Positions 3,001 to 44,776 of a stretch of DNA of 64,000 nt are shown one piece after another. The number at the start of each line of letters is the position of its first letter. Position 1 is the first letter of the stretch. The stretch comes from a virus, in IMG/VR virus record IMGVR_UViG_3300045988_071280. One strand, 5' to 3'. The notes under the pieces are model-generated. The model was given only the letters and a program-made list of their open reading frames with translations, was not told the origin of the DNA and searched no databases. Both the position numbers and the translations under genes were made by a program.

Positions 3001-3222
3001 TATTGTATTTAATTCCGTATTATAGGAAAATAATCTTATATATTCCTTTATTGCATCTACTAAATTTTCATCAGAATCAATGATAAAATCTTTTTGCAGA
3101 GAATTTTTAATATTCTGAAATTGTTGATCTGAAATAGTATCTCCCTGAAAATTAATCCAGGGAGATAGGTTTATTAAAAATTCTGGGCTTCTAGTGTTTG
3201 AATCAAAAAATTTACAAGCCAT
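1..3222 (-). CDS. giant virion-associated protein, N-terminal 1074 codons (ORF continues past the left edge)
   Basis: ATG at 3222-3220 (MACKFFDSNTRSPEF...), 2 nt after the stop of the 2935-aa ORF. No tta/cta/tca triplets in the minus-strand frame in the stretches I checked (1-360, 1501-1560, 3181-3222). It is missing from the track only because it has no in-window stop. Track ORFs 899-1519 and 2180-2407 are antisense shadows. Confidence 0.7.
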   Translation of the reverse strand, partial: MACKFFDSNTRSPEFLINLSPWINFQGDTISDQQFQNIKNSLQKDFIIDSDENLVDAIKEYIRLFSYNTELNTILNNSLDKILTKNIEKTLPPEEYKNPDPLVTTLENEVKTVEEDESVTEEDRDLATKEYVEQLNRSRKNVTYNEEIKTNRDLITKFQNNNSLYNRFVSTFKREIFKNSFLNLDSGKIVQTYSELNNNIAEYKQILFNHITKFLGEKDIIPLYNQDGSFNITEFTTIISRLNEYYDQHNPTSKLNSINNILYTPLSKSNQDYLNAYNALVTLENFDNLIVLLTDGLISIDPFKLGIKSTNRNEIKYLPFTKNALRQHFRVNEDSDINRETTSLTKAIIQNIPLLDSDGKWDGISYMTVNEFNNAISRIGDPVIKSSNKYNSLKLGKLNPTVAYIEFFNSLFVTDGKTDPSKINKFKKNLDFNLDTKKALLSIYKYIFDSTPEAKSLYNIIKDNQGDLSFNYFLDILAYMNKQDGSEYISYEYNSESGEYEVNTFSNLTYESSLFRQERNLTEYVDSIARNGDYDNTILNVLRNKFRVKVLDDSISITIGSRTLFINDHLNIANEDAITGKDLNKELLDSITIPNPEQVSAIINGKTLSESIMNGFRLLELLQLSTDLPFINSSGQLYSILKSQYRTESESNLKGDLLGLLYRTLKTIDTLDSIYKEYDSNKVNLTPGEFKSKVKKSFPEFKTMKDITFNKFFTSSKTRPRLKVNLNSKGDRSSVFKAAVSSINLLNREASPSTYKNSDGDNVPSIGLMNLVKNIHEFIYTTKDYQNNVRKHSNISNIFESNIFYNNPEYLKGIGLKTEFISPNGTTVQKNKFNVSEYGVSSIILDYFKNLMDDQIDYIEFLPTVYADKSNQSLIKISKDIKFDGKNIKSASATQIEVENFNSQQIYYTNLLSNLFKSYYKIGERLGVSLLDSIPKIKNKKEKAEIINNNIIAINNLLSTRWKEVSQIARELSLEDPNFKFIEEVHYSKVEMSKGNSVFRLNPFIENMANIYQVSTTDDSYYKDFINRSREIFKKDLKSKGIEVDTKVFKFLKDIPSLKNWIGRDGMMILEKDG

Positions 3223-3224
3223 AT

Positions 3225-9200: not shown

Positions 9201-12032
9201 TTCAAATATATAATCAATTCCTCTTTCTACCGGAACTCCTAATTCAAGTCCTAACTTTCTCGCTAAATCAAAATTACGTTTTGCATCTTCGTCAAGATTA
9301 AGCAAAGCCTCTTCATCTATTCCTGATAGATATCCTTTTATTTTATTTAATAATGGTAACTTAGATACTATATTTATAATATTATCACCATATTTCTGTG
9401 ATAATGACGTAAATATTTTATACGCTTTATCTAATTTCTCATTATTATCTTCTCTATAAGCTTTATATCTAGATTTAATTTCCTCTCTTTCAGATTCTGA
9501 TAAAGATCCATACGGTTTGCCGAGAATATTTTCTGTATATGTATATATATCAGAAGAATAAATTTTATTAGATATTTCGCTTATATTAAATAAAGCTCTT
9601 TTTAAATATTCTTCGGATTTTCCTCCTCGTAATAATATATCTTTCTCTGTTCTTTTTTGTTGAAGTTCTTCATTTATTATATTTAATCTATTCTCCAACT
9701 CTATTTTATTTGGAATTTCTTTATTAGGAGCATTTAATTGATTCTCTATATCTTTCTTTTCTAGAAGTAAGTTTCCTATTTCTTTTCCTAATTGATTATA
9801 ATCTCTAATAATATCTAATCTCCCATCAAATTTAATAAGATCTTCTACTCTCCTATCCCTTAATGCGGATAAAGATATTAATTCCTCGTCACTAAGGCGT
9901 AGATTTTCTTCATTAATAATAGCATCCCATTGATTTATTAATTGTAACGATAAGTCTATTACAGCATCATTTTGGGAAATATCTCCAGATTCTACAGGAG
10001 AGTAATTTATATTCTCTCCTTCTATTGTTCTATTAGTAGCAGAAAGATTTTTTGGAGCTACACCTTGTTGTCTTAATCTCTCTAATTCTGAGATTAATTT
10101 AGATTTACCTCCATTTCGTAATATGTAAAAGATATTATCAGTAGCTTGTTCCGGAACTCTTTTATTTATATCAGATAAATTATTAGCAGCTTTAAATATA
10201 GCCCCACCAATAGCACCTCCAAAACCAGCCATTAAGTATCTTTCTAATGGATTAGAGGATAAGAAATCAAAAGAAGCATCTTTTTGTGTACCAGAAATTC
10301 CTGTGAATATATCTGTAATAGCTTTAGACATATCCATAATAGCTTCTTCTGACATTTCCTCAATTCCCTCAGCTACAGCATTACTAGCTATTCCAGAACC
10401 TGAGATAATATTATTTATAGGTTCCTTTACTTTTTTAAATGTATTTATAGCTTTCTTTAATACAGAATTAAATGCAGCTTTATCTTTTGTATTATTTGCA
10501 GTATAATGTAATAATTCTCTATTTTCTTCGATAAACTTTTTTCCAGCATTTCTTATAGCAGCTCTTTCACTATCAAATCCCAATCCCTCTAAAGCTTTCT
10601 GTCCTATTTCTGTAGATTGTATCATCCAAGTAGTAGCACCCATAGCTAAGCCTGCAGTTAAGGCAGCTGTTCTTCTATCATATCCGGCATCTAAAGCATC
10701 ATTATAAACATCCATTGTAGAAGTTCCGGACATATAGAAATTAGCCATAAATCTACCTAAGAAATTATTTCTTATATTAGCTTTATTTATTGCATTTATA
10801 ACAGCAGGATCGTTACGAGTAATTGTATTATATAATCCTCTATTTTGAATTATACTACCATCAGAAATAGCTTGTATTATATCATCTCCATATTTAGCTT
10901 TTATAGCTTTTAGAGCAGCCCTTTCAGAATTTCCAATACCAAGCCAGTTTGGAATTTGAGCTAATAATCTTTGTTGGAATAATTGACTGCCAACGTCTGA
11001 GATTAATCTCCCAAAATTCTCAAAGGTTAATATTTTTTCTTGGGATTTATCAGATACACTAGTATTAAATTGATTGGCTTTGGCTTCTATAGTATTTAAT
11101 ATTCCATAATTAGGATTAGGATTATTATTAATAAACCCATCCATCATTTTATATAGAGTAATACCTAGCTTAGTACCTTCTCGAAGTACTAAAGCTCCAG
11201 CATAAGCCTGACCTACATATGGGATAAATAAAGGAGCGATACTAGCTATAGTTTGTGCTATAGTAGATCCGATACTAGATTCTTCTCCATCATTATCAAA
11301 AAAATCAAATTTATTCCACGTAGAATTTTCTCTAGTAATTACATCAAATGCACTTAATACTTGTTTACCGTGAACCTCTCGATTACCAAGAGTTTCATAA
11401 TAAGGCATTCCACTTTCATCTAATTTTATTTCTCCCTTTTTATGTTGTATTAATCTTCCTGTTTCTGGATCAGTTTCTTGTATATCTCTATCATATTGAG
11501 CTAAAACTATCGGAGTTTTAGTTACTGTTCCCCAAAATCCTAAATCCTCTGGAGTAATATCCATCCACCTATTATTCTCAGTATCAAAAATTTTATTTTG
11601 TTGAGCCATTTCTCTAGTAGACATACTAGTCATTTCTGTCCCTAGTATAGTATTTAATCCGGTGCTTTGAATAAAAGGATTTTTAGTCTTTATTATATCT
11701 AAAGAAATATCTTGTACAGGAGAAAGTTGAGATTTAAAAGGAGACATTATATCATATTGCACTTTGGGAAGATCCTCTTCTGTAAACTGTCCTATAGATA
11801 ATGTATTATATGAAGATAATGCTTTATTATAAAATGTATCAAATGCGTTATCATCAAATTTTCCATCGGGTGCAGTAAATGCCTGAACAATCTTTTCGTT
11901 TTGTTTATATTCATCCTTTGACTTCAATTCTATATCATTAGGAGTAACTCCGTTCTGTAAGAAGTCTATATAAGTTTTATCTTGGTTTGAGTAATATAAC
12001 CCAAACCAATCCTTTTTTTCTAAATTATCCAT
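3225..12032 (-). CDS. giant (2935 aa) putative virion/ejected protein with an embedded SF1 helicase core
   Basis: Uninterrupted 2935-aa ORF. Gly/Ala-rich hydrophobic segments in the N-terminal third (AGFGGAIGGAIF, LTAGLAMGATTWM). Central helicase motifs are listed in the separate domain feature. Lies in a block of giant ORFs downstream of the tail genes. Confidence 0.85.
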   Translation of the reverse strand: MDNLEKKDWFGLYYSNQDKTYIDFLQNGVTPNDIELKSKDEYKQNEKIVQAFTAPDGKFDDNAFDTFYNKALSSYNTLSIGQFTEEDLPKVQYDIMSPFKSQLSPVQDISLDIIKTKNPFIQSTGLNTILGTEMTSMSTREMAQQNKIFDTENNRWMDITPEDLGFWGTVTKTPIVLAQYDRDIQETDPETGRLIQHKKGEIKLDESGMPYYETLGNREVHGKQVLSAFDVITRENSTWNKFDFFDNDGEESSIGSTIAQTIASIAPLFIPYVGQAYAGALVLREGTKLGITLYKMMDGFINNNPNPNYGILNTIEAKANQFNTSVSDKSQEKILTFENFGRLISDVGSQLFQQRLLAQIPNWLGIGNSERAALKAIKAKYGDDIIQAISDGSIIQNRGLYNTITRNDPAVINAINKANIRNNFLGRFMANFYMSGTSTMDVYNDALDAGYDRRTAALTAGLAMGATTWMIQSTEIGQKALEGLGFDSERAAIRNAGKKFIEENRELLHYTANNTKDKAAFNSVLKKAINTFKKVKEPINNIISGSGIASNAVAEGIEEMSEEAIMDMSKAITDIFTGISGTQKDASFDFLSSNPLERYLMAGFGGAIGGAIFKAANNLSDINKRVPEQATDNIFYILRNGGKSKLISELERLRQQGVAPKNLSATNRTIEGENINYSPVESGDISQNDAVIDLSLQLINQWDAIINEENLRLSDEELISLSALRDRRVEDLIKFDGRLDIIRDYNQLGKEIGNLLLEKKDIENQLNAPNKEIPNKIELENRLNIINEELQQKRTEKDILLRGGKSEEYLKRALFNISEISNKIYSSDIYTYTENILGKPYGSLSESEREEIKSRYKAYREDNNEKLDKAYKIFTSLSQKYGDNIINIVSKLPLLNKIKGYLSGIDEEALLNLDEDAKRNFDLARKLGLELGVPVERGIDYIFEYRNTDLSDINTQNIIKNFFNSINQDGSGIDVGSIFSTYKNSGEFISNIFDTIFNIDQKIDTLSNSINNKLNSNPTLDKNFVIRESIEEFLNENVSNSVVKSYIQDNLNLPNLNSPEEAISNIRKILINLSGLLQFNLIPQLRTRSMMNLIESARNEGIELTKDLYSYIKTYLKSDNKVELDYSSYVSNLLSYVDESLGELVNYDLQNIKSQSPDFQAALKEGFEEIGVNNLEEILLISEELKNVKDWFEVANLLKNSNLNDVEKRIIIESINDSNKSKTKSSLSEINILSEASIDSSQLVENPLNTLLSEIYLNIDESTGNINIFELLSNESDLLKSTNTLSDYVLQGKVKLEQLDTAINVINALQSVVSSMQSSTIENGGYGFNSTLNYIREKLGVSEKLPEIESNSAFEVIQELERIKNKLGFYKKLSEQNKGNKLKEHKLTAIKTRQALIKNYQDKLFKNRAPELFEGVDDILSNYNLDSLNNSDLTDEEYISLEKLILEVEDRIYDNATKLSKNNTVSKEHLISKLFQNYDYSKLMKEAYNNPASLNSEITEMSPSDLFIYYHTILTTKASTFNNALRDIVNESLGSDKQLIIPIFSQEYAARIALACIIDINFMNNSTELTKEFENSITNPALRDKYKNYISRLQNTVFINGAPGVGKTTGVDSLVFKLANKLLGEQGAVISGPKVQQTVNLLNSITGESYSETEGLNTINDAIKNKKLTAITADMLLNSILVSPEIIEKAKKQFNDSQSKTIPENERVIDILETQDKELVVRINPKYLTPSNFKSGIFQDQRLIFIDEVTQLSKFELELLSSWAQQNDKILITSGDLLQSGYAGSDGAYLGIDVDTNLIYTPTLATSLRITNIHKKDNLDSLRVLTDRVRNVDNYYTTGEFNLEEGIKIALSNYENIPSLKYYEDDVKLSGDKIVGSISTFDLDKLVRDSEEPVGFIYDDVNSDTYKLIDTYIKKNPGKIRKFKLEEVQGSEAKYFIVDKKFNFGSHGEFVEKATRDLYTAITRSKEGTIIINNGLTTKLTKGSERISYTQSSILNNEAAKSFSELRLKALNSSLENKTIEPQKKESSTTSISTRQPNVELGKVLDAAFSDSPEANREIQQLERIESKTEKHSPDSFICYSYRTRIKPKAEINGDITTYSIKDSAIMLRLDSNSEHRAFFNGEIDGLNPTQFERVDEKILEVKSILYNYTKSRRNKLFKDYNIEQDLSNLYNDISGNTGTLDLSNGKFVLKATKYFNKSIGKEDSVIRIIYEIPILNSSTEENTVELYIVELPNINNESFRIKDSDTPEQRASKAWFVEYQKFYGQVMNSFILDESGKSNKYFQLRDDFELERITNSIIYKGSDKKKFAHVPFESKESEFRGIYFSKPYIVTNTRYGKSNRNELLIQRNERLNTLYNDYYETLEEYNKADTTQKSRLEPILKSKSERLNAEINKNNIKGKAVVFATHSKYIFDEDDNIISEDQYGDYYIDQMNGKYDNDPDRRDKIRMIILNPEGQTFQSFISKYREFINSYKKNSGVAKYNGKFYKSYFGDFIGFDTLLSIYNYYNYLKANGKPDSKHIKIAEKLFNSLSSLSTKEGNAENPFDLPSAKVKFGLPHVLRIMERLHIETTPEEIKKMENYSSSINGNDVLKFINKIIEFKINQRLHPELLVSSPIINEENGGIFQDWNKEDGITDLDIIDFMEFAMLGRRNYKQPDGSISSVEAPNYNPLFKNGIFPFPVYELTDKKTDYTGGEYFYEARNPEGQYYIDRDIQTPQFVFQPSKDLASPNDFGIARVENNNREVSNKDVEKQKSKEVYRAELYNNIKDKLSTSNIDLNYLLVNNISLATITGSMDRDVESNINSTIDVVNTILKTQPVKVDEISEVDYIEYKNNELKIYSRPIENIEQNDSISEENNISLSQTFGKMFDVVSDPKDLEMLKNITKVLLTYDNNNLLINYVTKSEITPDTVNLILSNINIQTILSDINKIRSKYNIC
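6110..7265 (-). other. RecD/Dda-like superfamily 1 helicase (P-loop NTPase) core within the 2935-aa ORF
   Basis: Motif I GAPGVGKT (7209-7232, aa 1601-1608). Motif II LIFIDEVTQ (DE at 6789-6794, aa 1747-1748). Motif III ILITSGDLLQSG. Motif V-like VQGSEAKYFIV. Motif VI YTAITRSKEGT (about 6128-6160). Confidence 0.75.
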
Positions 12033-12033
12033 A

Positions 12034-13908
12034 TTATTTAAATGCAGCTGGATTTAATCCTCCAGTTTGTTGTGTAATTTGATTAGTATTTCTTATTACA
12101 TTTTCATAATCTAAATTAGATTTAGCTGTTTGAGGAGCAGTTTTTCCAGTAAATAAGATTGACATTAACTCATCTTGTACAGGTAAGAATATAGAGGATT
12201 TATATATATCATCGTCGGATATGAGCCAATATTCTGGAGGTACGTAACCATTAGCTCTCAACATTTTATTTTCTAGATTAGATCTAACTCTAGCATACAT
12301 ATCTCTAGCCTTATCCTCTAAATCATTATTTAATCTCTTAGTAATACTATTTAATTGAGTTTCCTTTGCCACTTCTTCTGGAATTAGAGATGGGATAACC
12401 ATAAATTGATGCATATAAGATAATTGACTTTGTGCTGGTTCTCCGCCTCTAAGTATTAAATGATCTACATTATGTGCTCTGTATATATTTAATTTCTGAT
12501 CTTCTGTAACTGTAGGACCTATAGCAGAAATTTCTCTATCTGCATCTTCTAAACGCTTTAATGCTTTTAAATCTACTACTTTAGAACCTGTTTTAGGATC
12601 TGTTATATATGGTAACCATGTCATCGCTACTCTATCTCCTTCATATAATATCTTACTTAAATCATTCGGGTTTAAAGTAACTCCAGTTCCAACAGAAGCT
12701 CCTGAAATATCTACTAAAGAACCTAATCCTCCGTTAGTAATTATATCAGATAAATAATTCTCATTTAATACTTCTCCTTTAGCTCCTATTAATGGTCTAA
12801 TACTAGCTTTAGCATCAAAAGAATATTTATCTCCTACATTTACTACATATTTCTGATTTTTAGGATCTGATACATAGCTCATTAGAGGGTTAATATCAGT
12901 TAATCCTCCTTTACCTCCAGAACCACTTCCTGATTTACCTTCTATATTCTCATCTTTTAATGATTGAGAATAAGAATGATCAGTTCCGAAGATTAGGATA
13001 TTTTTAATACTTTCTATAGCATTTTCTCTAGGATCTCCAGTATTATTAATAGCAGCTCTTGCGATTAAAGTATTTTTAGATTGTTGGTCTAAATTATTCC
13101 ATATGTAATTTAAAGCAAGATTAGCATTTTTTCTTTGTGTAGCAACTTCCTCAGTTAATTTAAAAGTTCCATCAGGAGCGGTATTTAACTTCTCACTTAC
13201 AATAGCTTGTAATCCTTTTTCTAATTGATTAGCTCTAGCTTTATCAAAGTAATAATCAGAAGATTGTTTTTCTACTCCTATAGATTTAACAATCTCTTCT
13301 ATTCGTTTACTTATATCGTTTATATTTAAACTTCCAGCAACCGTTTGAGATAGGCTATTATCAAATATATAAGCTTTACTATTATTCCTTAGAGTTAAGA
13401 GATCATTATTAGTTAATACTCTATACTCTTCTCTACTTTCTGAGTATTGATCTGGAGTAATCATAACAAGTTCTCCATTAGAGTTTTGTGCGAATAAATT
13501 TCCAGAATAATCTATTGCTGCTTCTGAAAGTGTTCCTTTAGATAGTGCGTGTTCTTTTGCTTGATCAAATATCTGTTTATTATTCTGAATCTCGTTTAAT
13601 CTAGATACTAATCCTGTATATTGTCTAACGCTAATAGGTTGTCCTAAAAGATCTGTATCAGCAAAGATATTACCAACTTGTTCTGCGAAATAATTAACTT
13701 CATTAGTTAATCCTTTACCAACCATTTGACCTATAATATCTTTTAACTGTCTCTGAGAATTATCAATCTTAGTATCACCAGATTTAGCAGAAGAATTAGC
13801 TACAGCTGATGTCCCTTCTTCTCTTCCAATAGGTTGAAAGAAAGGAGAATACCCAACCCACGGGGCCAGTTGTCCTCCTTCTTGAAATTTTTTAATATTT
13901 AACTTCAT
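12034..13908 (-). CDS. virion-block protein, 624 aa, function unknown
   Basis: Long ORF starting 1 nt after the upstream stop. N-terminal KKFQEGG motif shared with neighbouring proteins. Internal GSGSGGKGG linker. Confidence 0.8.
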   Translation of the reverse strand: MKLNIKKFQEGGQLAPWVGYSPFFQPIGREEGTSAVANSSAKSGDTKIDNSQRQLKDIIGQMVGKGLTNEVNYFAEQVGNIFADTDLLGQPISVRQYTGLVSRLNEIQNNKQIFDQAKEHALSKGTLSEAAIDYSGNLFAQNSNGELVMITPDQYSESREEYRVLTNNDLLTLRNNSKAYIFDNSLSQTVAGSLNINDISKRIEEIVKSIGVEKQSSDYYFDKARANQLEKGLQAIVSEKLNTAPDGTFKLTEEVATQRKNANLALNYIWNNLDQQSKNTLIARAAINNTGDPRENAIESIKNILIFGTDHSYSQSLKDENIEGKSGSGSGGKGGLTDINPLMSYVSDPKNQKYVVNVGDKYSFDAKASIRPLIGAKGEVLNENYLSDIITNGGLGSLVDISGASVGTGVTLNPNDLSKILYEGDRVAMTWLPYITDPKTGSKVVDLKALKRLEDADREISAIGPTVTEDQKLNIYRAHNVDHLILRGGEPAQSQLSYMHQFMVIPSLIPEEVAKETQLNSITKRLNNDLEDKARDMYARVRSNLENKMLRANGYVPPEYWLISDDDIYKSSIFLPVQDELMSILFTGKTAPQTAKSNLDYENVIRNTNQITQQTGGLNPAAFK

Positions 13909-13909
13909 A

Positions 13910-16900
13910 TTATTTCTTAATTATTCCTCCGAATCTAAATACTTTAGGATATTGTCCAGATAATCCTAATTTTTGTAAATCTATATTCCTCTTTAATCCT
14001 TTAAGTTGTAACTCTTTTTGAGCGTTAATAATATTTTTATATTCTGGATCTAAGAATAATTTAGTAGGATCTTTCTTATATTCTTCTTTTTGATATAACG
14101 CATCTAATCTTCTCTGTAAATCTGATGCAGTAATAGAATCCTCTGTAGATAATCTAGCATTTTTATATTGAGAATCTAAAAGTTGTTCATTTACTTTTCT
14201 AGCATTATTTGTATTTATATACTGCTTAGTTTGTTCTGTTACATCATGTAAGAATGTATCCCAGATATTAGCATTTTGTCCTATCTTCTGAGCTTTTAAA
14301 TTCGCTAAAGTATTTAAATACTCCGTAGTAGCTAAACGATTTCTATTTGCAGCTTCCTCTCTTCTCATTAAATTATTAGCATTAACTTGGAATGCTTTTT
14401 CTCTAGACTGTTGTATAGCTTGTTCATTTGCTAAATCTCCTTGCAATCTTGCTTCTGCTGCATTTTTAGCTACTTCTAAATTATATGCTAATTGTCTGTC
14501 GGCATCTGAGGTTAGAGGTGTTCTAGTTAATCCTTCTAAATTTGCTGCTTGTTTATAATAAGCTTGTCTAACTCCTTCATTTCCTTGAATAGAATAATTT
14601 AAATCTGTAGGGAGATTTATTAAAGAAGGTCTTAGATTCTTTCTTAGTGTTTTATATATCTTATTATTAGCTGCTGTTTTTTGTATAGCAGAAGCTAAAG
14701 AAGATATAGTAGTTAGAGGAATACTTCCTAATGACGATTTAGTTGGAAGATAATTTTGAGATTCAACATTAGAACCAGTTGAAGATTTAGTGATAGGAGT
14801 ATTTAAAGAAGGTGTATTCATTGATTTTAAATTAAAATCAAAAGTATTATTATTTAAAACTTCGGAATCAATTCTTCTTATTCTAGAAGGCGATTTTCTA
14901 GTTACAACAACTTCTTCTAATATGTTAGTAGGTGTAACTCCTCCATCTTGATATTTAATAACTCCTCCATTTTTAAATTCTTTAACTTTTTTATTTGCTT
15001 CAATCCATTCTTTAGAGCCTAATTCATATTTATCTCTTTCTTTAAGAAGTTTATTTCGAATAAAAAAGTAATCTAAAGTACCTCCATCCTTATGTTTTTT
15101 AGGTAATCTATCTCCTACATCTTTACTTTTCTTCTTACTTACTGTTTTCTTTTTAGAGGAATGTTTAGATGCAGCTTGATATTCTTGAGCATTTATACGT
15201 TTTCTTAATGCTGCGTCCTCTTCTGCTTTAATTAAGAGATTTAATATTCTTTCATCGTTTTGATTACTAACACTTTCATTCGGAGTTGTAACTATTCTAG
15301 ATAAATTCTTATTTTCTTCTTTATATCCTAACTCGTTACGTCTTTTTGTTTCCTGACCTTTTAAATATGCTAATTGTCTACGTTTTTTAGCTTCTTCTAG
15401 TTTTTGCTTATTTTTGGCTATTTCTGCCTTTCCTTCATCGCTGTAAATATAAATTTTATCTTGTGCCTTTTTTACATCAGATTTAGTCATTCTACTAGCT
15501 CTCCCAGAAGGTTCTGCTAAACGACGCGTTGTTCCGAAAGGTGTAAATTGCATTTGTTCTAGTATAGAACTATTTAATTCCGCATCTGTAGGTCCTTTTG
15601 TTGGATTTACAACATTATGTATTAATTGCTCTTTTTGCTCAAGTATTTCAGATCTAGGAGCTCTTAAATTAATTTTTCCAGGAACTTTTTCAGTTAATTT
15701 TCCATAATATACTACAGTAGGAGCACCTAAAGTTTGTCCGAGATAAATATTATTATCCTCTAATTGTTTCTGGATATTGCCACGTCTATAATAAGCCTGT
15801 TCTGCTACTAATCCTTTCTGGAAGGATGAAAGTTTATTATTCTTAATCTTATCTAAAGTTTCTGGCGTTAATTCTCTTCCAGCTACTTTAGTTTCTTTTA
15901 CTTTTCCAACTCCACGTGTGAAAGGATTATACCATTTACCTTTAGGTATTTTTATATTACTTAAATCCTCATCAGTTAAATCCGTATATTGAGATTTTAA
16001 TTTAGTCTTGACAGTAGTTAATTTATCCTCTGTCGACATCTTATTAAATCCCTCTACCTCATTATTCTTAAATAAAACTTCTTTAGTTTTACCGTTAACA
16101 TTAACTTCTATAGGTTTAGATAATTCTCCTGCACCAGCTTTTTGAGTATATAACTTCTTCCCAGCAACATTTCTACCGATACCCGTTACAGCATTTAATC
16201 CATTAGCTAACAATCTCCAGTCATTTATAGTTAATTCTTCTCCTGACATTACTTTACCTAAAGCAGTAAGAGAAGTTCCTAATCCTAATGCAGTGAATGC
16301 TTTACGTAGTATTGGAGCTGCTGTTTTTATTGCTTTAGTTACTTTAGCTCCTTTAGCTATTGTTCCTAATCCGGGAATTAATGTTGCTGCATCCATTCCT
16401 AGATTTAGTATTAAATTTCCAGTATCACTCCATGACCAATCATCGTCACGTTTATAATCAGCAATAGCAGTAGAAATTGTAGATCCTAATCCCGTTGCAG
16501 CTCCCACAGCATTTCCTACTCCTAACGCAGCGGTAGAAGCTAAACCAGCTACATCTAATGCTAATGCAGTTAAATCTGCTTTATCTGCTGCACTTAATAA
16601 TTCTCCAGAGAATACGTCTGACATAGAAGCAGATTGTTTATCTTGTAGATCTGAGGAAATTGAATTTCTTAATATTCCACCTTCTTGATACATTCCTACT
16701 CCACTTGGTATATATCCGGTACCTGCATAGTTACTCATTGGAGTATATTTTAATCCTAAAAATGGTTTAATCTTGTTATCATATAAGCCATATTTAGAAT
16801 ATAAATCAGCCAAAAATTTACTTCCCAAGGTTAAATCTCTCCCTTCAACTGGATTTACATTAAGCTTATTTAAATTAATAGAAGAAATTCCTGGATAATT

Positions 16901-18370
16901 TGATGTCGGACTAAATTGTAAATAACCTTGATTATATTTAAATTCCCCAGGAATTATATCTCCAGTCTTTTTATTAATAGCATAAATCCCCGTCGATTTA
17001 TATGGTCTACCACTACTTAGATAACTCTCAACATTCTGAGGATTATTTATTCCAATAAATTCATAATCTTCAACAGCTTGATTATCTCCTATATAAGGAT
17101 TAAAATAATCAATACCATATTCTTCTCCTTCCGGAAGATTTAATAACTTAGCTAATTTATAGTAAGCATTATAACTCTGTTCTTTATCCCAATCTTTCTT
17201 ATATTTAATATTCTCAGCATTTTTTCTCCAACTATATACTTCTGGATTATATATATCATTTAAATATTTAACATTACTTCCTACATAATCCTTAATCTTT
17301 TCATAAGGTATATAATCAGTATCATACCATCCAGATTTTAACATATATGTAGCTGGGTTAGATTCAAACGGAAAATAGCCTCTTAATCCCACAAGATTCC
17401 CAGAAGAATCTTTTTCTCTTAATCCTTCTTTAGTGACTACTATATTTTTTCCGTTAAAATTATAACTTAGAGGAGCATTTTCTGGTAGATTATTTGTTTT
17501 CCTTATTTCATCCTCTTCTTTCTTAATCTGTTCTTCGGATTTAGTAGATCCTTGAGTAGAAGAATTTTGTTGGTTTGAATCTCCAAAAATATATTTCCAT
17601 ATATAATCACCAAAACGCTGATTATTCTTCTGTTCTTCCCAATCAAATTCTGAATTAGGATCCCCATTTCTACCTTGAGATAAATCTTCTATAAATTGAT
17701 CGTACTCCTGTATAGATTTAAAAGGAAGATTCTCATATCCCTTAAATGGAGTTTTATCTTCTGATGATAAATACTCATAAAATCTTCTTCTATTATTTTC
17801 TAAAGCCCTAATTACATCATCAATCCTTTCAGAAGTATTTTTCCTATTATATACTTCCTGATTAATCTTTCCTCCCCATACGGAATTAATTAATTCTCTA
17901 GGATTCCATGACACATCTATTTTATCAGGTTCTTGTAAAGTATTAGAATATTCAGTGAGATTTAAAAAGTTATTATCTATAGCTTTAGCTAAATAATCAC
18001 TACTATATTTATCACCTAAATTAAATCCTTCTGAGTTGTTATATTTAATATCAAATCCACTTGGAGTACTATTAATCTCTTGTATATCACCTTTACTTAG
18101 AGCATCTAAAAATCTATTATAAGAAGCATCTACTCCAGATCCTCTTCTTCTATAAGAGTTTTTTAAATTTCGGGAGTCATCAGAACTAACCCAATTCTGG
18201 AGTTTTTCTTTAGCTTCTTTTATATCGTATTTTTTACCGTTAATAGTAATTGTCTTTGTTTCCTGCTCTTTTTTATTATAAAGGTCTTGTAATTTTTGCT
18301 TCCTTTTATTATATTCTTCTATATTTGAAGGAGATTTACCTCCAGTTTCAAATTTAGGAACTTGTGCCAT
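13910..18370 (-). CDS. 1486-aa tape-measure/ejection-like protein
   Basis: N-terminal PKFETGG motif. Gly/Ala-rich hydrophobic stretches (LALDVAGLASTAALGVGNAVGAATGLGSTISTAIA; LGLGTSLTALG). K/E-rich helical segments. Further YQEGG, HKDGG, FKNGG, YQDGG and C-terminal FRFGG motifs. Confidence 0.8.
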   Translation of the reverse strand: MAQVPKFETGGKSPSNIEEYNKRKQKLQDLYNKKEQETKTITINGKKYDIKEAKEKLQNWVSSDDSRNLKNSYRRRGSGVDASYNRFLDALSKGDIQEINSTPSGFDIKYNNSEGFNLGDKYSSDYLAKAIDNNFLNLTEYSNTLQEPDKIDVSWNPRELINSVWGGKINQEVYNRKNTSERIDDVIRALENNRRRFYEYLSSEDKTPFKGYENLPFKSIQEYDQFIEDLSQGRNGDPNSEFDWEEQKNNQRFGDYIWKYIFGDSNQQNSSTQGSTKSEEQIKKEEDEIRKTNNLPENAPLSYNFNGKNIVVTKEGLREKDSSGNLVGLRGYFPFESNPATYMLKSGWYDTDYIPYEKIKDYVGSNVKYLNDIYNPEVYSWRKNAENIKYKKDWDKEQSYNAYYKLAKLLNLPEGEEYGIDYFNPYIGDNQAVEDYEFIGINNPQNVESYLSSGRPYKSTGIYAINKKTGDIIPGEFKYNQGYLQFSPTSNYPGISSINLNKLNVNPVEGRDLTLGSKFLADLYSKYGLYDNKIKPFLGLKYTPMSNYAGTGYIPSGVGMYQEGGILRNSISSDLQDKQSASMSDVFSGELLSAADKADLTALALDVAGLASTAALGVGNAVGAATGLGSTISTAIADYKRDDDWSWSDTGNLILNLGMDAATLIPGLGTIAKGAKVTKAIKTAAPILRKAFTALGLGTSLTALGKVMSGEELTINDWRLLANGLNAVTGIGRNVAGKKLYTQKAGAGELSKPIEVNVNGKTKEVLFKNNEVEGFNKMSTEDKLTTVKTKLKSQYTDLTDEDLSNIKIPKGKWYNPFTRGVGKVKETKVAGRELTPETLDKIKNNKLSSFQKGLVAEQAYYRRGNIQKQLEDNNIYLGQTLGAPTVVYYGKLTEKVPGKINLRAPRSEILEQKEQLIHNVVNPTKGPTDAELNSSILEQMQFTPFGTTRRLAEPSGRASRMTKSDVKKAQDKIYIYSDEGKAEIAKNKQKLEEAKKRRQLAYLKGQETKRRNELGYKEENKNLSRIVTTPNESVSNQNDERILNLLIKAEEDAALRKRINAQEYQAASKHSSKKKTVSKKKSKDVGDRLPKKHKDGGTLDYFFIRNKLLKERDKYELGSKEWIEANKKVKEFKNGGVIKYQDGGVTPTNILEEVVVTRKSPSRIRRIDSEVLNNNTFDFNLKSMNTPSLNTPITKSSTGSNVESQNYLPTKSSLGSIPLTTISSLASAIQKTAANNKIYKTLRKNLRPSLINLPTDLNYSIQGNEGVRQAYYKQAANLEGLTRTPLTSDADRQLAYNLEVAKNAAEARLQGDLANEQAIQQSREKAFQVNANNLMRREEAANRNRLATTEYLNTLANLKAQKIGQNANIWDTFLHDVTEQTKQYINTNNARKVNEQLLDSQYKNARLSTEDSITASDLQRRLDALYQKEEYKKDPTKLFLDPEYKNIINAQKELQLKGLKRNIDLQKLGLSGQYPKVFRFGGIIKK

Positions 18371-18386
18371 AGTTAATGATTAAAGT

Positions 18387-18421
18387 AAAAAAATGGAGTA
18401 TTATATTTAAATAATACCCCA
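18387..18421 (-). terminator. intrinsic terminator after the 92-aa gene
   Basis: Minus strand reads TGGGGTATTAT-TTAAAT-ATAATACTCCA (one mismatch) followed by T7. Lies between the stop at 18433 and the next ATG at 18370. Confidence 0.55.
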
Positions 18422-18432
18422 TCTAAGATAAT

Positions 18433-18711
18433 TTATTGTCTTTTCTTTACTACTAATTTTCCTCCTCGACGCGCCATTACAGGCTCAGTAGGAGCTTCTG
18501 CTTGAGCAGCTTGTCCCTGAGTCATTTCGACTAACGCTGAACATACCGCCAATGCAGCTTGACAATCCTGATTTTGAGTTGCCTGAGCAGCTAATTGAAG
18601 AATTTGTTGAAAGATTTGTTCTGGACTAGGTTGAGCCTGAGTAGCAGGTTCCGCGGGCATAGTTCCGCCCTCTTGTAAGATTTTTACTTTAAATTTTTCG
18701 TTTACTTTCAT
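18433..18711 (-). CDS. small A/Q-rich protein (92 aa), unknown function
   Basis: ORF with KILQEGG near the N-terminus and RRGGKLVVKKRQ at the C-terminus. Central part is visibly more GC-rich than its surroundings. Has its own promoter-like motif and hairpins on both sides. Confidence 0.7.
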   Translation of the reverse strand: MKVNEKFKVKILQEGGTMPAEPATQAQPSPEQIFQQILQLAAQATQNQDCQAALAVCSALVEMTQGQAAQAEAPTEPVMARRGGKLVVKKRQ

Positions 18712-18739
18712 TTCTTTAATATTTAACGTTAAACTTGTA

Positions 18740-18747
18740 CAAAGTTA
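18740..18747 (-). promoter_or_regulatory. Bacteroidota-type -7 promoter motif candidate (TAACTTTG)
   Basis: Matches TAnnTTTG on the minus strand, 29 nt upstream of the ATG at 18711 and directly after a hairpin. Confidence 0.35.
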
Positions 18748-18769
18748 GGATTTTGTATATAAAAATCCT
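18747..18769 (-). terminator. hairpin/terminator downstream of the lysozyme gene
   Basis: AGGATTTT / AAAATCCT 8-bp stem with a 7-nt loop in the 18712-18860 spacer. Confidence 0.4.
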
Positions 18770-18860
18770 ATTGTTTGGTAGTATTTAATAATTCTGAATT
18801 ATTTACCACCTTTTGAACCTTTACCTTTAGATTTGCTTTTAGATTTACAAGCCATAATGT

Positions 18861-19433
18861 TTAGGATTTAAATTTGTTAGATATATATGTATTTACCTCA
18901 TCTATTCTATTTAACCATCCTTTTAAAAATTTACTTTGAGAAGGTTTTCTATCTACTATTGATTGATAATATTCTTTTCTTTGGGAAATAAATTCTTGAA
19001 GCAGATTTTTAGAATTGCATAAATTCGCTAATCTAATTGTAGTTGGTCCAATTTTCCCATCTATATCTAAGGATTGTCCTAAATTTGAAATAGCTTTTTG
19101 AAGGCATTTAACACCATTAGAAACACCAGCATTAACGGAATGGTCTAATAGATGGGCTGAGATATAAATGTTGCTTATATCATCTATTTTACATTTATCA
19201 TAAAAATTATCTTTATAGAATTGTTCTACTAAATCTTCTAATTCTTTAACTGTTGTTATAATCTGTCCTCTTTTTAATGGTTTAAATTTATCAATAATCC
19301 TCCATCCTTCCCATTTAGGGAAATTAGCACGGGATATTCCACAATATGTCTCCTTCCCGGAGTCGTCGGGGTCAAATACATAACCTCCCTCGTTTTTTAG
19401 GATCATTGATATAAGAATGTGGGATTTATTCAT
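18861..19433 (-). CDS. GH108-family lysozyme with C-terminal peptidoglycan-binding (PG_binding_3-like) domain
   Basis: N-terminal ILKNEGGYVFDPDDSGKETYCGIS matches the GH108 EGGY..DP.D.GG.T..GI signature. C-terminal IDGKIGPTT is typical of the associated PG-binding domain. Confidence 0.75.
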   Translation of the reverse strand: MNKSHILISMILKNEGGYVFDPDDSGKETYCGISRANFPKWEGWRIIDKFKPLKRGQIITTVKELEDLVEQFYKDNFYDKCKIDDISNIYISAHLLDHSVNAGVSNGVKCLQKAISNLGQSLDIDGKIGPTTIRLANLCNSKNLLQEFISQRKEYYQSIVDRKPSQSKFLKGWLNRIDEVNTYISNKFKS

Positions 19434-19454
19434 TTAAATATATATTTATTAATA

Positions 19455-20126
19455 TTATTTAGTCTTTACATATTCCGGATCATTATTATCCTGAATTTTC
19501 ATGTATTTAAATACAGACTTACCTAATCTCTTATATGCGGAATCTGTTTTTAATTTCTCTGCTTTTTTAGCTTGGCGAATTAAGACTCTAGTATTCTTCC
19601 TAGAAAATATTCTCTCTCCACCTTTTATTTTATACTGTACTTTACCGTTAGTAGAAAGTATCTCCAATAAATCTTCTAAATCATCAATATCATTCTCTAT
19701 CTTGTCTTTAGGAGATTCATCCTCTAAATCTTCTAAATAATCTAATTTTTCTTCAAGTACTTCATCTAATCCCTCAAACTCTACACTTTCTCCAGATCGA
19801 ATTCCGGAATTATTAGATACCTCTAATACGAATAATACATTCTTTTCAGATATAATACTTGTATCATTAGGTTTCCCTTCTTTATTAGATATTACTTTAA
19901 ATTCTGGAGAGATGAAGATTATATCTAAATATAAAGGAGTATCTTTCATCCAATAATTTACTTCTTCTTGTACTTCTGGATATATAAATAGAAGCCCTTG
20001 ATTTTTAGATAAACTTTCTATATGCATAAATCCATGTTCTCTTTCCCAGTCATCTATAGCAGTATCACAGAGGTATTCTTTATTATGTACTTTAACTTTT
20101 ACAATTGATTTTTTTAATTCTGACAT
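19455..20126 (-). CDS. DUF192 (COG1430)-like domain protein with charged C-terminal tail
   Basis: EREHGFMHIESLSKNQGLLFIYP...NYWMKDTPLYLDIIFISPEFKVI...VLFVLEV...GIRSGESVEF follows the DUF192 pattern (G.M..L...GMLF...WMKNT..PLDI.F...VLE...G). Confidence 0.55.
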   Translation of the reverse strand: MSELKKSIVKVKVHNKEYLCDTAIDDWEREHGFMHIESLSKNQGLLFIYPEVQEEVNYWMKDTPLYLDIIFISPEFKVISNKEGKPNDTSIISEKNVLFVLEVSNNSGIRSGESVEFEGLDEVLEEKLDYLEDLEDESPKDKIENDIDDLEDLLEILSTNGKVQYKIKGGERIFSRKNTRVLIRQAKKAEKLKTDSAYKRLGKSVFKYMKIQDNNDPEYVKTK

Positions 20127-20135
20127 AATTATATA

Positions 20136-20948
20136 TTATTTAAAATAAGGATCCTCATCATCAGCATAATAATTCTTCATGTTATCTCTTAACAAATAAG
20201 ATCCTACTTTGGGATTAAATTTAATATCTTCTCTAATTTCCAAGGATTTTTCTCTTTTAGGAATAGTGTATTTTCCTGTAACTATAGAAGGAAAGTCGTA
20301 TGTATCATTTACTTTGATAGTATTATTATCCTTATCCCATTGAATGGTAAAATTCCCGAAAAGATCTAATCCTGTTGCAAAATGCTGATTCTTATCCGGA
20401 CGTTCTATATATTTAACAGTTAATCCTTCATTAACTACTTTCGGCTCTCCAGATTCTAGTACCTCTTTTCCAGTTCTATATATTTTTTCTAATCTAGATT
20501 TACTAGGTAATTCTGGAAATTTTTCTATATATTTATCATAATTACGTAGAATTTTACCTACATTTAAGGTATCTACCATAGATTGTACTCTACGGGCTAC
20601 AGGTTGTGGGATTCCTACATATTCAGTATTTTTAGGATCTTTATCTTTGTCAGCATTTATCCTAGCTTTGGAAGATTTTATTAATCTCGAATCCTTTCCT
20701 AAATTTAAATAATGTTTAAAGAAAGCCTCTTCAATAGGAGTTGCTAATTCCCTTTCTTCTCGGATTGGAACTGGAGTATTAGTATAATTTAAATATGGAA
20801 GACGTATGTAATAAGGAGCACTCCAATAACCATCAGCTGGATTGAGAAAATTATATACTCTCTCTGCTTGAGTTTGTTTTATATTACTTTTTCCTCCATT
20901 CTGATACTTTTGTATTAAATAAGAATTTACTCTATTTAAATTTAACAT
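20136..20948 (-). CDS. virion-block protein, 270 aa, unknown function
   Basis: ORF with the N-terminal QKYQNGGKS motif shared with neighbouring proteins. Confidence 0.75.
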   Translation of the reverse strand: MLNLNRVNSYLIQKYQNGGKSNIKQTQAERVYNFLNPADGYWSAPYYIRLPYLNYTNTPVPIREERELATPIEEAFFKHYLNLGKDSRLIKSSKARINADKDKDPKNTEYVGIPQPVARRVQSMVDTLNVGKILRNYDKYIEKFPELPSKSRLEKIYRTGKEVLESGEPKVVNEGLTVKYIERPDKNQHFATGLDLFGNFTIQWDKDNNTIKVNDTYDFPSIVTGKYTIPKREKSLEIREDIKFNPKVGSYLLRDNMKNYYADDEDPYFK

Positions 20949-20969
20949 AGCATTATATATAAAAGGCTA

Positions 20970-21005
20970 TATTTAAATAGAATATATTTCAATTCTATTT
21001 AAATA
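20970..21005 (-). repeat. perfect 14-bp inverted repeat (AT-only hairpin) between genes
   Basis: tatttaaatagaat (20970-20983) and attctatttaaata (20992-21005) with an 8-nt loop, between the stop at 21014 and the ATG at 20948. Confidence 0.6.
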
Positions 21006-21013
21006 TACCTACA

Positions 21014-22213
21014 TTATTCAGTTTCTTTAATTACTTTACCCTTATCGATAGTATTATGTAATATCTCCTTAACTAGTAACTTTCCTGCCTCAATAGCAGC
21101 TTCATCAGTATCTTCTTTATATAATTCCTCTAATTTCTCAGTGACTTCTAATCTAAGAATCAACTCTTCCCGTTCTATTTCCGCTACTTGAGATATCTTA
21201 TCCCCTTCCTTTAATATAACAGGAATACCTTTTCTAGATATATCTTCTGTATCTAAATGATGAAGTTCTTTATGTAATTTACCTTCTGGAATTATATTCT
21301 TTTCTCCAATCTTACCACCATCTTTATATTTAAGGATATTTTTCTGAGATTTAGCATATTTAATTCTAAAAGATTCTAGGAATTTAAATCCATCTCTTCC
21401 GAATCGGATATTATTTAATCCTCCCGATTGTTCTAGTTGTAATTTATTTGCGAACATATCAGAAGAACTTGCTGCTCTTGCTGATTTATCTGATGCATCT
21501 GTTAAGATATCATCTATAGTATCTTGATATCCCTGAGCTTTATCCATTTTTCTATTAGCTTTTTTTCTAGCTTTACTAGAATATAAACCATATTTTTTTC
21601 CACTTAATGTTCCAGCATCCGAAATAAATTTACCAGTTCCGGTATAAGAAGAGTTGTTCGCTATATTTTGATCTACAGTAAATGTTCTAGATTTTTTTCC
21701 GCCGAAATTATTAATCATTGCTGCTGGAGTAAGAGAAAGTAATTTACTCCCAAGAATAGCATCTGATTTAGTCATAGCATCATTATAATTACCAAATTTA
21801 CTTATAATATCAGATACAAGACCACCAACTTTCATAATTCCTCCTACTAAAGGATTTATCATCATTACTATATTAGAAGCAGAATCAAATGCTTTATCTC
21901 CAGCTTTTTTTAAATCCGCATATTTTCCTGTAGGTTCTTTTCTTCCTATAAGAGTAGAAGTAATATCTGCTGCTTGTCCTATAATATTCCCAGTAGATGC
22001 CGATTTACTTATTCCAGAATTATTATTTAAATTAGCACTAGCTACTGTACCTTTAAACTTATTCCATCCTCTACCTAAAGCTCCGGATCCGGTTTTTCCT
22101 AAAGTAGCATTTTGTAATGCCATTGTATTTAATTTAAGAGGTTCGCTAGCACTAACTGCACCAATTAATGGTTCGCTTGATGTGAGTACTCCTCCAATAT
22201 TAAATTTTTTCAT
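21014..22213 (-). CDS. virion-block protein, 399 aa, unknown function
   Basis: ORF with N-terminal MKKFNIGG motif and an internal LKYKDGGK. Gly/Ser/Ala-rich first half. Confidence 0.8.
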   Translation of the reverse strand: MKKFNIGGVLTSSEPLIGAVSASEPLKLNTMALQNATLGKTGSGALGRGWNKFKGTVASANLNNNSGISKSASTGNIIGQAADITSTLIGRKEPTGKYADLKKAGDKAFDSASNIVMMINPLVGGIMKVGGLVSDIISKFGNYNDAMTKSDAILGSKLLSLTPAAMINNFGGKKSRTFTVDQNIANNSSYTGTGKFISDAGTLSGKKYGLYSSKARKKANRKMDKAQGYQDTIDDILTDASDKSARAASSSDMFANKLQLEQSGGLNNIRFGRDGFKFLESFRIKYAKSQKNILKYKDGGKIGEKNIIPEGKLHKELHHLDTEDISRKGIPVILKEGDKISQVAEIEREELILRLEVTEKLEELYKEDTDEAAIEAGKLLVKEILHNTIDKGKVIKETE

Positions 22214-44774: not shown

Positions 44775-44776
44775 AT

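Follow-up and report, generated by a model that had tools for sequence, protein, structure and literature searches.

Why should unrelated genes in one stretch of a phage genome begin with the same few residues? The question is raised by a 64,000-nucleotide stretch of DNA, IMG/VR virus record IMGVR_UViG_3300045988_071280 (here called the window), which by its gene content belongs to a divergent crAss-like phage with a muzzle and tail-barrel architecture. Five of its proteins, encoded in a block of putative cargo and ejection proteins, carry a short peptide ending in Gly-Gly near their N termini. A preliminary description of the window had read this peptide as either a maturation cleavage site or a signal for packaging or ejection. 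We show here that the motif is real, is specific to the block, is selected at the level of the peptide, and is kept at internal module boundaries. To that extent the earlier reading is borne out, in that the peptide is a selected, protein-level, block-specific short linear motif, as would be expected under either function.

A shared N-terminal motif in the cargo block

The five N-terminal copies, whose coordinates were verified by translation, are all as originally claimed (aa, amino acids):

22190..22207, minus strand: KFNIGG, residues 3-8 of the 399-aa protein, whose gene comes next after the muzzle gene
20892..20909, minus strand: KYQNGG, residues 14-19 of the 270-aa protein
18664..18681, minus strand: ILQEGG, residues 11-16 of the 92-aa protein
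18338..18355, minus strand: KFETGG, residues 6-11 of the 1486-aa protein
13873..13890, minus strand: KFQEGG, residues 7-12 of the 624-aa protein

After the Gly-Gly pair, the sequence continues as QLAPWVGYSPFFQPIGR in the 624-aa protein, KSPSNIEEYNK in the 1486-aa protein, TMPAEPATQ... in the 92-aa protein, and VLTSSEPLIG... in the 399-aa protein. The five proteins show no mutual similarity and no common Pfam or PHROG family, and no PHROG family was found for any of them. Two details of the preliminary description needed correction. The genes are not consecutive, as the DUF192 and GH108 lysozyme genes, both motif free, intervene between the 270-aa and 92-aa genes; nor does the motif lie at the same distance from the start, the position of its hydrophobic residue varying from 4 to 15.

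The claim that such a recurrence is not coincidental held up against shuffled controls. The pattern [FYL]xxGG occurs within the first 25 residues of 5 of the 49 called window proteins, where 0.58 would be expected, or 0.73 on the basis of local N-terminal composition (P = 2e-4 to 4e-4 by composition-matched resampling of the 49 proteins), and all five motif proteins fall in the seven-gene run directly after the muzzle gene. A stricter pattern, [KR]-hydrophobic-[QKENAM]-x-GG, was compared between block genes and the remaining proteins and was found in 4/7 block proteins versus 0/41 others in the window. Enrichment in related phage proteomes, which had been proposed as a check, was also seen: the stricter motif is concentrated in the block of both MT835470 (2/6 versus 1/110) and MT835492 (3/5 versus 0/128). 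Within the 1486-aa protein, five motif copies are present versus 1.2 expected from shuffles (P = 0.004).

Similar elements were observed outside the block. A 275-aa Lys/Arg-rich protein of MT835470 (106500-107327, minus strand) starts with MATKFQQGG and contains repeated KCGGK / FKCGGMAKKRIKK elements, which resemble YKCGGRR and YRCGGHR of p-crAssphage gp48; it may be a further tagged internal protein. At 44143-45070 (minus strand) of the window lie three tandem small paralogues of 104, 110, and 97 aa, without a family match, all of which start with MAEF or MAEY and have a hydrophobic-x-x-GGKD element about 20 residues before the C terminus (LYSGGKD, FSLGGKD, and FILGGKD, respectively).

Conservation of the motif among orthologues

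Alignments of orthologues point to the consensus [K/R]-[L/F/Y/M]-[Q/K]-x-G-G, often followed by x-hydrophobic. The motif is kept in orthologues at 25-53% identity, and its flanking sequence diverges. Variants include KLQQGG, KLQGGG, KFQFGG, KFAEGG, and RYQTGG in the 624-aa family; KLQSGG, KLQDGG, KYQTGG, KFQTGG, KYQQGG, and KYQKGG in the 1486-aa family; and KLQEGG, KLQDGG, FMQQGG, and KFQEGG in the 92-aa family, in which hydrophobic-Q-[EQD]-GG is invariant in 9/9 members. For the 399-aa protein, close strains have KFYDGG and KFQEGG and more distant ones KLQWGG and KFKLGG, and the orthologues of MT835470 and L040 have the degenerate forms KFQWGN and KMQFGK. Homologues of the 270-aa protein were found by tblastn only in close relatives, and close strains have KYQSGG.

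The 624-aa family provided the deepest sampling, with 710 clusters (50% identity level) at E values up to 1e-3 among 1.84 billion cluster representatives. The motif hydrophobic-x-x-GG lies within the first 40 residues in 119 of the 150 best of these 710 clusters, and the typical start of the family is MKI..K[LFYM]Q.GG..PF.VYTP. A 60-member alignment (20-28% identity) has just five invariant columns, M1, G11, G12, A131, and P433, and Q9 is at least 90% conserved. When sequences were anchored on Gly-Gly (n = 131), K was present at position -4 in 88, L/Y/F/M at -3 in 104, and Q at -2 in 105. The motif is the most strongly conserved feature of this family. A homologue search with the 1486-aa protein returned only near-identical sequences because the phage is very abundant (hundreds of near-identical contigs), and a search for related loci with P0141 returned no locus.

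Selection on the peptide rather than on the RNA

A Gly-Gly pair near a start codon could also arise trivially, either by chance or as a Shine-Dalgarno-like GGAGG that is read through as Gly-Gly, the true starts lying downstream. Four of the five window copies are indeed encoded by GGA GGA/GGT, which contains GGAGG. However, the 92-aa copy is encoded by GGC GGA, and the Gly codons of orthologues vary freely (GGG GGT, GGT GGT, GGC GGA, and GGC GGG). At the usual spacing of 5 to 10 nucleotides downstream, a start codon is missing for four of the five copies, and the only copy followed by an ATG within a few bases is that of the 92-aa protein, the one that is not GGAGG. The regions upstream of the motif genes contain no Shine-Dalgarno sequence, copies also occur inside proteins, and neither the shuffle P value of about 3e-4 nor conservation across hundreds of 50%-identity clusters fits a chance origin.

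Recoded relatives provide a further line of evidence. In the same structural genes, L034 and MT835492 read TAG as sense, and L038-L056 read TGA as sense; the block of the window itself uses the standard code. In the 92-aa family, the Q of the motif is encoded by TAG in the TAG-recoded phages, supporting both the reassignment of TAG to Q and selection for Q at this position. Together, the variable Gly codons and the TAG-encoded Q indicate that selection acts on the peptide and not on the mRNA, and we reject the Shine-Dalgarno artefact on these grounds; the chance that the pattern is an artefact of either kind is negligible.

Internal copies and module boundaries

The motif also recurs within the proteins, at the following positions:

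21314..21331, minus strand: KYKDGG, internal in the 399-aa protein, directly upstream of its C-terminal domain (21017-21313)
16676..16693, minus strand: MYQEGG, internal in the 1486-aa protein (residues 560-565), about 40 residues upstream of a Gly/Ala-rich hydrophobic segment
14939..14977, minus strand: FKNGG-VIK-YQDGG, a tandem internal copy in the 1486-aa protein (residues 1132-1144), common to close relatives
13925..13939, minus strand: FRFGG, followed by IIKK and the stop codon, at the C terminus of the 1486-aa protein, common to close relatives only

The internal copies listed in the preliminary description fared unevenly. KYKDGGK and MYQEGGI are conserved: the MYQEGG position is kept in 11/11 aligned members of the 1486-aa family, in some as a tandem double (NGGILKFQEGG), and among 35 diverse homologues of the 399-aa protein, nearly all have a hydrophobic-x-x-GG-[KST] element ahead of the C-terminal domain. 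FKNGGV and KYQDGGV were supported in part, being found in close relatives, with a single YKKGG-type copy aligned to the site in the TGA-recoded L038, L040, and L045. FRFGG is not positionally conserved, but in several relatives a copy lies among the last 50 or so residues. Three other proposed copies were dropped or left without support: RRGGK at the C terminus of the 92-aa protein is not kept as Gly-Gly (G is followed by G, T, E, or S in relatives), YKIKGGE of the DUF192 protein does not fit the pattern in register, and conservation of LRNGGK in the 2935-aa protein was not established. As a side observation, of the small ejected proteins of phage T7, gp6.7 ends in ...SAFGGKK and gp7.3 has ...KARAGGKK... 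near its C terminus; both are loosely like FRFGGIIKK and FRCGGKK, possibly by coincidence.

The C-terminal domain of the 399-aa protein (21017-21313, minus strand), with the signature N-[VLI]-I-P-E-G-x-L-H ... K-G-I-P-V ... A-E-I-E ... A-A-I-E-A-G-K-L, is shared at more than 50% identity across many metagenomic phages (homologues P0281-P0370) and has no Pfam, PDB-sequence, or fold match. Some homologues have two or three tandem copies of the motif upstream of it (KFKDGGSLNIN ... GFKKGGTLNIN ... EFKEGGSFNVIPEG), and copies also occur after the domain. Fifteen fused homologues of about 1150-1275 aa have the 624-type domain as their C-terminal half, and the motif is present at the internal junction in 15/15, preceded by a basic linker (...HPK..K[MLYF]Q.GGVAPF.VYTP); a further copy opens about half of these proteins, and several of the rest have a degenerate one at that place.

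Predicted structures place the motif outside folded regions. In an AlphaFold2 model of the 624-aa protein built from the 60-sequence alignment, residues 1-48 have a predicted local distance difference test (pLDDT) score of about 40, compared with many blocks above 90 in the body, and the copy before the domain of the 399-aa protein has a pLDDT of about 50. The PDB contains no match to the fold of the 624-aa protein, which resembles phage proteins of about 600 aa lacking characterisation and, less closely, some crAss-like proteins of similar length. A conserved element without predicted structure, between diverging flanks, matches what is expected of a linear motif in disorder, and its location in a tail predicted to be disordered is typical of a linear motif read by another molecule.

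Taken together, the aligned copies suggest that the motif acts as a punctuation mark before modules, with the extended consensus hydrophobic-x-x-G-G-x-hydrophobic. Such a distribution at module boundaries could also be expected of a passive linker or turn, that is, a flexible hinge without a specific reader that recurs by shared ancestry or module shuffling, and the modules do appear to be shuffled, as in the inserted domains of the MT835470 and L034 homologues of the 399-aa protein, which are bracketed by motif copies. Yet a hinge would not keep Q at 90% or more together with a hydrophobic residue at a fixed offset, nor would it be the most conserved element of a 600-aa protein, and at the extreme N terminus there is nothing to hinge. 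We therefore regard a passive linker as very improbable.

Virion type and gene context

The affiliation of the window follows from its muzzle, ring, capsid, and portal matches in Pfam taken together. These are the muzzle gene, a CrAss_Ring_2 match (2.4e-9) in the open reading frame (ORF) 32572-33255, a weak CrAss_Ring_1 match in ORF 31877-32566, a Crass_capsid match (4.2e-14) in the 473-aa MT835470 orthologue of a split window gene, and a portal-like gene (P22_portal, 2.9e-6, below the Pfam cut-off). The window thus has the muzzle, tail-barrel rings, crass-type major capsid protein, and P22-like portal of a Crassvirales-type virion, the portal at a sub-threshold score. Its G+C content is low (about 28%), and the minus strand carries nearly all of the genes. 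The nearest public records, MT835470 and MT835492, are two human-gut contigs without annotation; many related IMG/VR contigs of 80-185 kb exist, and a near-DNA search against phage records gave no match. The genes around the motif copies are as follows:

22224..27110, minus strand: muzzle protein, 1628 aa (Pfam crAss_MUZ, E = 2.6e-26), at the upstream end of the block
12034..22213, minus strand: putative cargo/ejection-protein block, by synteny with crAss001 gp45-gp46
19455-20126, minus strand: DUF192 protein, motif free, inside the cargo block between the 270-aa and 92-aa genes
18861-19433, minus strand: GH108 lysozyme with a PG_binding_3 domain, motif free, inside the cargo block
3225..12032, minus strand: giant 2935-aa protein, without an N-terminal motif, downstream of the block

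In the direction of transcription, the block encodes the 399-aa, 270-aa, DUF192 (223 aa), GH108 lysozyme (190 aa), 92-aa, 1486-aa, and 624-aa proteins. Cargo of crAss001 is stored in capsid and tail zones and consists of gp45 (C1), gp46 (C2), and three RNA-polymerase-associated giants, gp47, gp49, and gp50 (PMC10172136). The motif genes occupy the place of gp45/gp46, between the muzzle gene and a giant protein, and pairwise similarity of window proteins to crAss001 proteins is undetectable. By this synteny, the tagged block proteins are probably virion cargo that is injected into the host, and the 2935-aa giant would, from its position, be the counterpart of the RNA-polymerase-associated cargo of crAss001. 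A conserved extension (KGGERIFSR...), some 100 residues long, forms the C terminus of the DUF192 protein. Nearly all relatives keep the gene at this position, and the annotated cargo blocks of the canonical crassviruses examined include no DUF192 gene.

Several other features of the window were observed. Positions 1-3224 (minus strand) form one stop-free frame, the start (MACKFFDSNTRS...) of another giant gene that leaves the window and is missed in the ORF list because the frame is open ended; by position it corresponds to a 2275-aa protein encoded after the 2967-aa giant of MT835470, and the two N termini look alike (MACTNF.../MACKFF...). The capsid gene appears to be in four pieces on the minus strand (36714-37229, 38567-38854, 39035-39340, and 40662-40907), which jointly align to the 473-aa Crass_capsid protein of MT835470. 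Two ORFs in between, each some 360 aa long, resemble intron- or intein-borne homing endonucleases: 37281-38363, which has NUMOD1 homing-endonuclease domains, and 39443-40519. The portal-like gene is likewise split on the minus strand, 62580-63788 and 60434-61468 corresponding to the N- and C-terminal halves of a 733-aa MT835470 protein with a weak P22_portal match; a 289-aa ORF without a Pfam match (61539-62408) separates the pieces.

The motif in canonical crassviruses

Among canonical CRASSVIRALES, crAss001 gp45 has FDTGG at residues 17-21, plus FAEGG and FAYGG. DAC15 gp59 has YLLGG at residue 21 and four further aromatic-x-x-GG copies (P = 0.0005 versus shuffles), and the IAS virus homologue has FALGG at residue 21. 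MDVLKFLQGG is the start of p-crAssphage gp45, whose annotation describes a fusion of an RNA-polymerase-associated protein with a zincin protease. Several copies each are present in p-crAssphage gp47 and gp48 and crAss002 gp30, the latter two also having C-terminal ones. The C1-type proteins (DAC15 gp59/L036, L060, L061, and L001) contain tandem modules of about 62 aa, each opened by hydrophobic-x-x-GGG, with the repeat GGGIHIKKxNRGKFTxYCGGxVTxxCIxRG...RKRAxFAxNARKW, whose conserved Cys residues suggest a small metal-binding module. In crAss001, an N-terminal copy is found only in gp45, with a degenerate FVSGA in gp46. From these comparisons, the full multi-protein N-terminal set, known from uncultured phages only, is a feature of the clade of the window, and the element itself is more widespread. 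The cultured Flavobacterium phage FpV4, which has a muzzle-like match, was considered as a model and set aside, the tag set being absent.

A proposed recognition tag for internal virion proteins

Our best explanation, to which we give somewhat less than an even chance, is that the motif serves primarily as a recognition tag on internal virion proteins that are ejected, much like the capsid-targeting sequence of phage T4. A common partner in the virion machinery would read the tag, the likeliest candidate being a repeated site inside the procapsid, the portal, or the tail barrel. This reading would load unrelated proteins into the particle and/or hold them N terminus first for ejection through the tail; large multi-module proteins would have one tag per module, and the tag might be cut off after Gly-Gly once used, as the T4 sequence is. 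Since the T4 tag both targets and is cleaved, targeting and cleavage would not be mutually exclusive here. In favor of this explanation, the tails are predicted to be disordered, the proteins that carry the tag are otherwise unrelated, and Pfam detected no protease family in the proteins scanned. In addition, crAss001 gp45 has its N-terminal part in the tail barrel and was modelled as one chain across an internal copy; the structure paper mentions neither motif nor cleavage (PMC10172136).

Several observations weigh against a recognition tag. No partner can be named for it. The 1486-aa orthologues of MT835492 and L034 (TAG recoded) have a degenerate or lost N-terminal copy, the 399-aa orthologues in L038 and L045 have none, and the 424-437-aa proteins that replace the 270-aa protein in L031 and L033 have a similar N terminus and are motif free. 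C2-type proteins (gp46) and the RNA-polymerase giants also lack the motif, and as the giants are untagged, the tag cannot be a universal loading signal unless they ride along with tagged proteins. Further, an address tag is needed only once per polypeptide, yet fusions and multi-module proteins repeat it, which fits cleavage at least as well. Finally, where internal virion proteins are known to share an N-terminal motif, proteolysis is nearly always involved.

The division between tagged and untagged proteins bears also on a third possibility, namely, that the motif works after ejection, through self-association, as a Gly-Gly turn between hydrophobic residues, into a trans-envelope channel or as a binding site for a component of the host envelope. 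The smaller, membrane-type proteins are the tagged ones, the 399-aa and 1486-aa proteins bearing Gly/Ala-rich hydrophobic segments, and the RNA-polymerase giants are not; hydrophobic-x-x-G-G-x-hydrophobic is compatible with a beta-turn, and multiple copies per protein would favor multivalent assembly. Nevertheless, AlphaFold predicts no local structure, and the consistent placement at the extreme N terminus would be left unexplained. We consider this role improbable.

A possible cleavage signal for proteolytic maturation

Alternatively, a Gly-Gly-directed protease, encoded by the phage or the host, might cut after Q-x-G-G, removing short leaders and separating ejection-protein modules during assembly or after ejection. 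Candidates would be the zincin-like domain of RNA-polymerase-associated crAss cargo or a cysteine protease not yet recognised. We regard such maturation as a serious possibility, albeit one more doubtful than probable. Much of the distribution described above agrees with it. In the 624-aa family, Gly-Gly is invariant, Q is nearly so, and the motif begins 0-10 residues from the initiator Met, as a short propeptide would; all 15 fused homologues keep it at the junction after the basic linker, in the 1486-aa and 399-aa families it stands before one module after another, tandem copies included, and each C1 repeat of about 62 aa begins with its GGG form. Q-x-G-G is, moreover, the SUMO tail cut by clan CE proteases, and in T4, phiKZ-like phages, and 80alpha the N-terminal motifs that internal virion proteins have in common are sites of protease cleavage. 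The zincin-fused gp45 of p-crAssphage itself starts with the motif, and crAss polyproteins have been proposed to be cleaved, possibly with the involvement of a zincin-like domain in the virion proteins orthologous to phi14:2 gp65 (bioRxiv 10.1101/2020.03.07.982082).

The outcome of a search for a protease counts against this alternative. The preliminary description had recognised no protease gene in the window, and a Pfam scan of all window proteins agrees, with no maturation-protease family; the Peptidase_S74 match in the window is the chaperone domain of endosialidase-type tail fibres. Its proposal to look in the rest of the genome was followed in the relative MT835470 (a 117-kb record), where Pfam likewise gave no maturation protease in 87 proteins of 90-1200 aa, including 47 late proteins. 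For the early proteins, the result holds among the 25 top-ranked families listed, and divergent proteases could escape such scans. Three of the four MT835470 proteins of more than 1200 aa have window orthologues that were scanned; the 2275-aa giant does not. In the same two protein sets, none of the C5, C39, C48, C57, and C63 families, of the cognate clan CE or C39 type, was found by Pfam, and a weak Peptidase_M16 match among the late MT835470 proteins (E = 0.004) is most likely spurious. The only candidate is a HEFAH motif in an 804-aa protein of the RNA-polymerase module of MT835470, which counts in favor of cleavage, although the protein has no peptidase match in Pfam.

Two other candidates were examined within the block. 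The C-terminal IPEGxLHxxxH domain of the 399-aa protein was rejected as a Gly-Gly metallopeptidase, given one invariant His, a low-confidence AlphaFold model, and no PDB sequence or fold match. For DUF192 as a reader or protease, the PDB matches were just two entries lacking characterisation, and a literature search was empty.

The preliminary description had likened the motif to adenain sites, bacteriocin leaders, and LRGG, in all of which P4 is hydrophobic. In the 624-aa family, P4 is instead occupied by Q (at least 90% in the 60-member alignment; 105/131 in the anchored set) and the hydrophobic residue is at P5 (L/Y/F/M in 104/131), so that the analogy fails in register. The hydrophobic residues at -4, -7, -12, and -15 of bacteriocin-type leaders are likewise absent, the leaders of the 624-aa family being only 0-10 residues long. 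The core does match the Q-x-G-G of SUMO and ubiquitin-like tails, with Q at 90% or more and Gly-Gly invariant, a resemblance of sequence only; there is no beta-grasp domain upstream, where the N-terminal copies are preceded by only 0-10 residues. P1' is highly variable in the 624-aa family and is sometimes Pro.

Data from crAss001 virions also bear on cleavage. Bayfield et al. modelled gp45 as a single chain from tail to capsid across FAEGG, with peptides detected on both sides (PMC10172136), and virion gel bands include 85 and 100 kDa (PMC6235969), compared with 90.8 kDa predicted for gp45, a comparison of sizes only; both speak against cleavage. The published crAss001 matrix-assisted laser desorption/ionization (MALDI) peak lists gave no match to the N-terminal peptide of gp45, whether cleaved or uncleaved.

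A more general proposal applies to the crAss-like phages of this clade. In a tag-per-module code, hydrophobic-Q-x-G-G would stand before each separately folding module of the ejection apparatus, and its dedicated reader would be either a Gly-Gly protease not yet recognised, which would divide polyproteins within the particle, or periodic docking pockets of the portal and the paralogous tail-barrel rings. We consider this possible but, on balance, unlikely.

Novelty and implications

Shared N-terminal tags on internal virion proteins are already known as a kind of feature, and no description of this motif, its distribution, or its tag-per-module layout was found in full-text literature searches, in the crAss001 structure paper (PMC10172136), or in the 2025 Zeta crAss-like phage paper. 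How crassviruses select, store, and order several megadaltons of internal cargo is a question raised by the crAss001 structure (PMC10172136), and a conserved tag on the non-polymerase cargo offers a concrete handle on cargo sorting. The tag predicts cargo proteins in uncultured genomes, points to Q and Gly-Gly as key residues, and gives an exact prediction for mass spectrometry, in that mature N termini lie directly after Gly-Gly or they do not. Tag peptides are also candidates for binding to portal, ring, and muzzle proteins, and if the tag were sufficient for loading, foreign proteins could be packaged into crAss-like particles. Were the tag-per-module code true, it would be the first defined cargo-sorting or maturation signal of the most abundant human gut virus group; if the motif is a cleavage site, it implies that this phage group has a protease not yet recognised, Pfam having detected none in the genomes scanned.

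Comparison with known systems

Encapsulin cargo-loading peptides, which are usually C terminal (e.g., GSLxIGSLK), resemble the motif in being short, containing Gly, and lying in a disordered terminus; they dock diverse cargo onto the inner face of an HK97-fold shell. Unlike them, the motif is N terminal and has another consensus, and nothing points to the capsid protein as its receptor. The phiKZ-like giant phages, with the propeptide cleavage motif S/A/G-x-E, and Staphylococcus phage 80alpha, whose capsid and scaffold proteins share an N-terminal motif cleaved by the host protease Prp, are alike in having a short motif on many head-internal proteins, often N terminal and sometimes cutting polyproteins into modules. 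Their sequences and proteases are different, however, and were proven by mass spectrometry, whereas the present motif is known from sequence.

Double-glycine sites include those of the adenovirus protease, (M/L/I)-x-G-G|x, the bacteriocin leaders cut by C39 peptidases, LRGG of ubiquitin, and Q-x-G-G of SUMO, and adenovirus, African swine fever virus, and poxviruses mature internal virion proteins with clan CE proteases at Gly-Gly sites. The motif shares with them a Gly-Gly core after a conserved residue pattern and is closest to the SUMO-type Q-x-G-G tail; it differs in its hydrophobic residue at P5 and in the lack of hydrophobic residues at -7, -12, and -15, and its cleavage is putative.

Mullaney and Black are said to have described, in 1996, the capsid-targeting sequence of the T4 internal proteins IPI, IPII, IPIII, and Alt. 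That sequence docks on the scaffolding core and is cut off at L/I-x-E by gp21, the prohead protease. As in T4, a short N-terminal peptide is common to unrelated internal proteins, here within residues 3-19 of five proteins, and in both cases it would be an address peptide of about 10 residues on unrelated proteins that are packed into the head and co-injected with the DNA. The differences are that the sequence here is hydrophobic-Q-x-G-G, that no prohead protease was found by Pfam and cleavage is putative, and that copies also occur internally and at fusion junctions, in a crAss-type podovirus with tail-barrel storage.

The cargo of crAss001 belongs to the same particle type and is encoded at the same place, between the muzzle and the RNA-polymerase giants. 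It has no pairwise similarity to the proteins of the window, and the DUF192 protein, the lysozyme, and the multi-protein tag set are features of the window's own clade.

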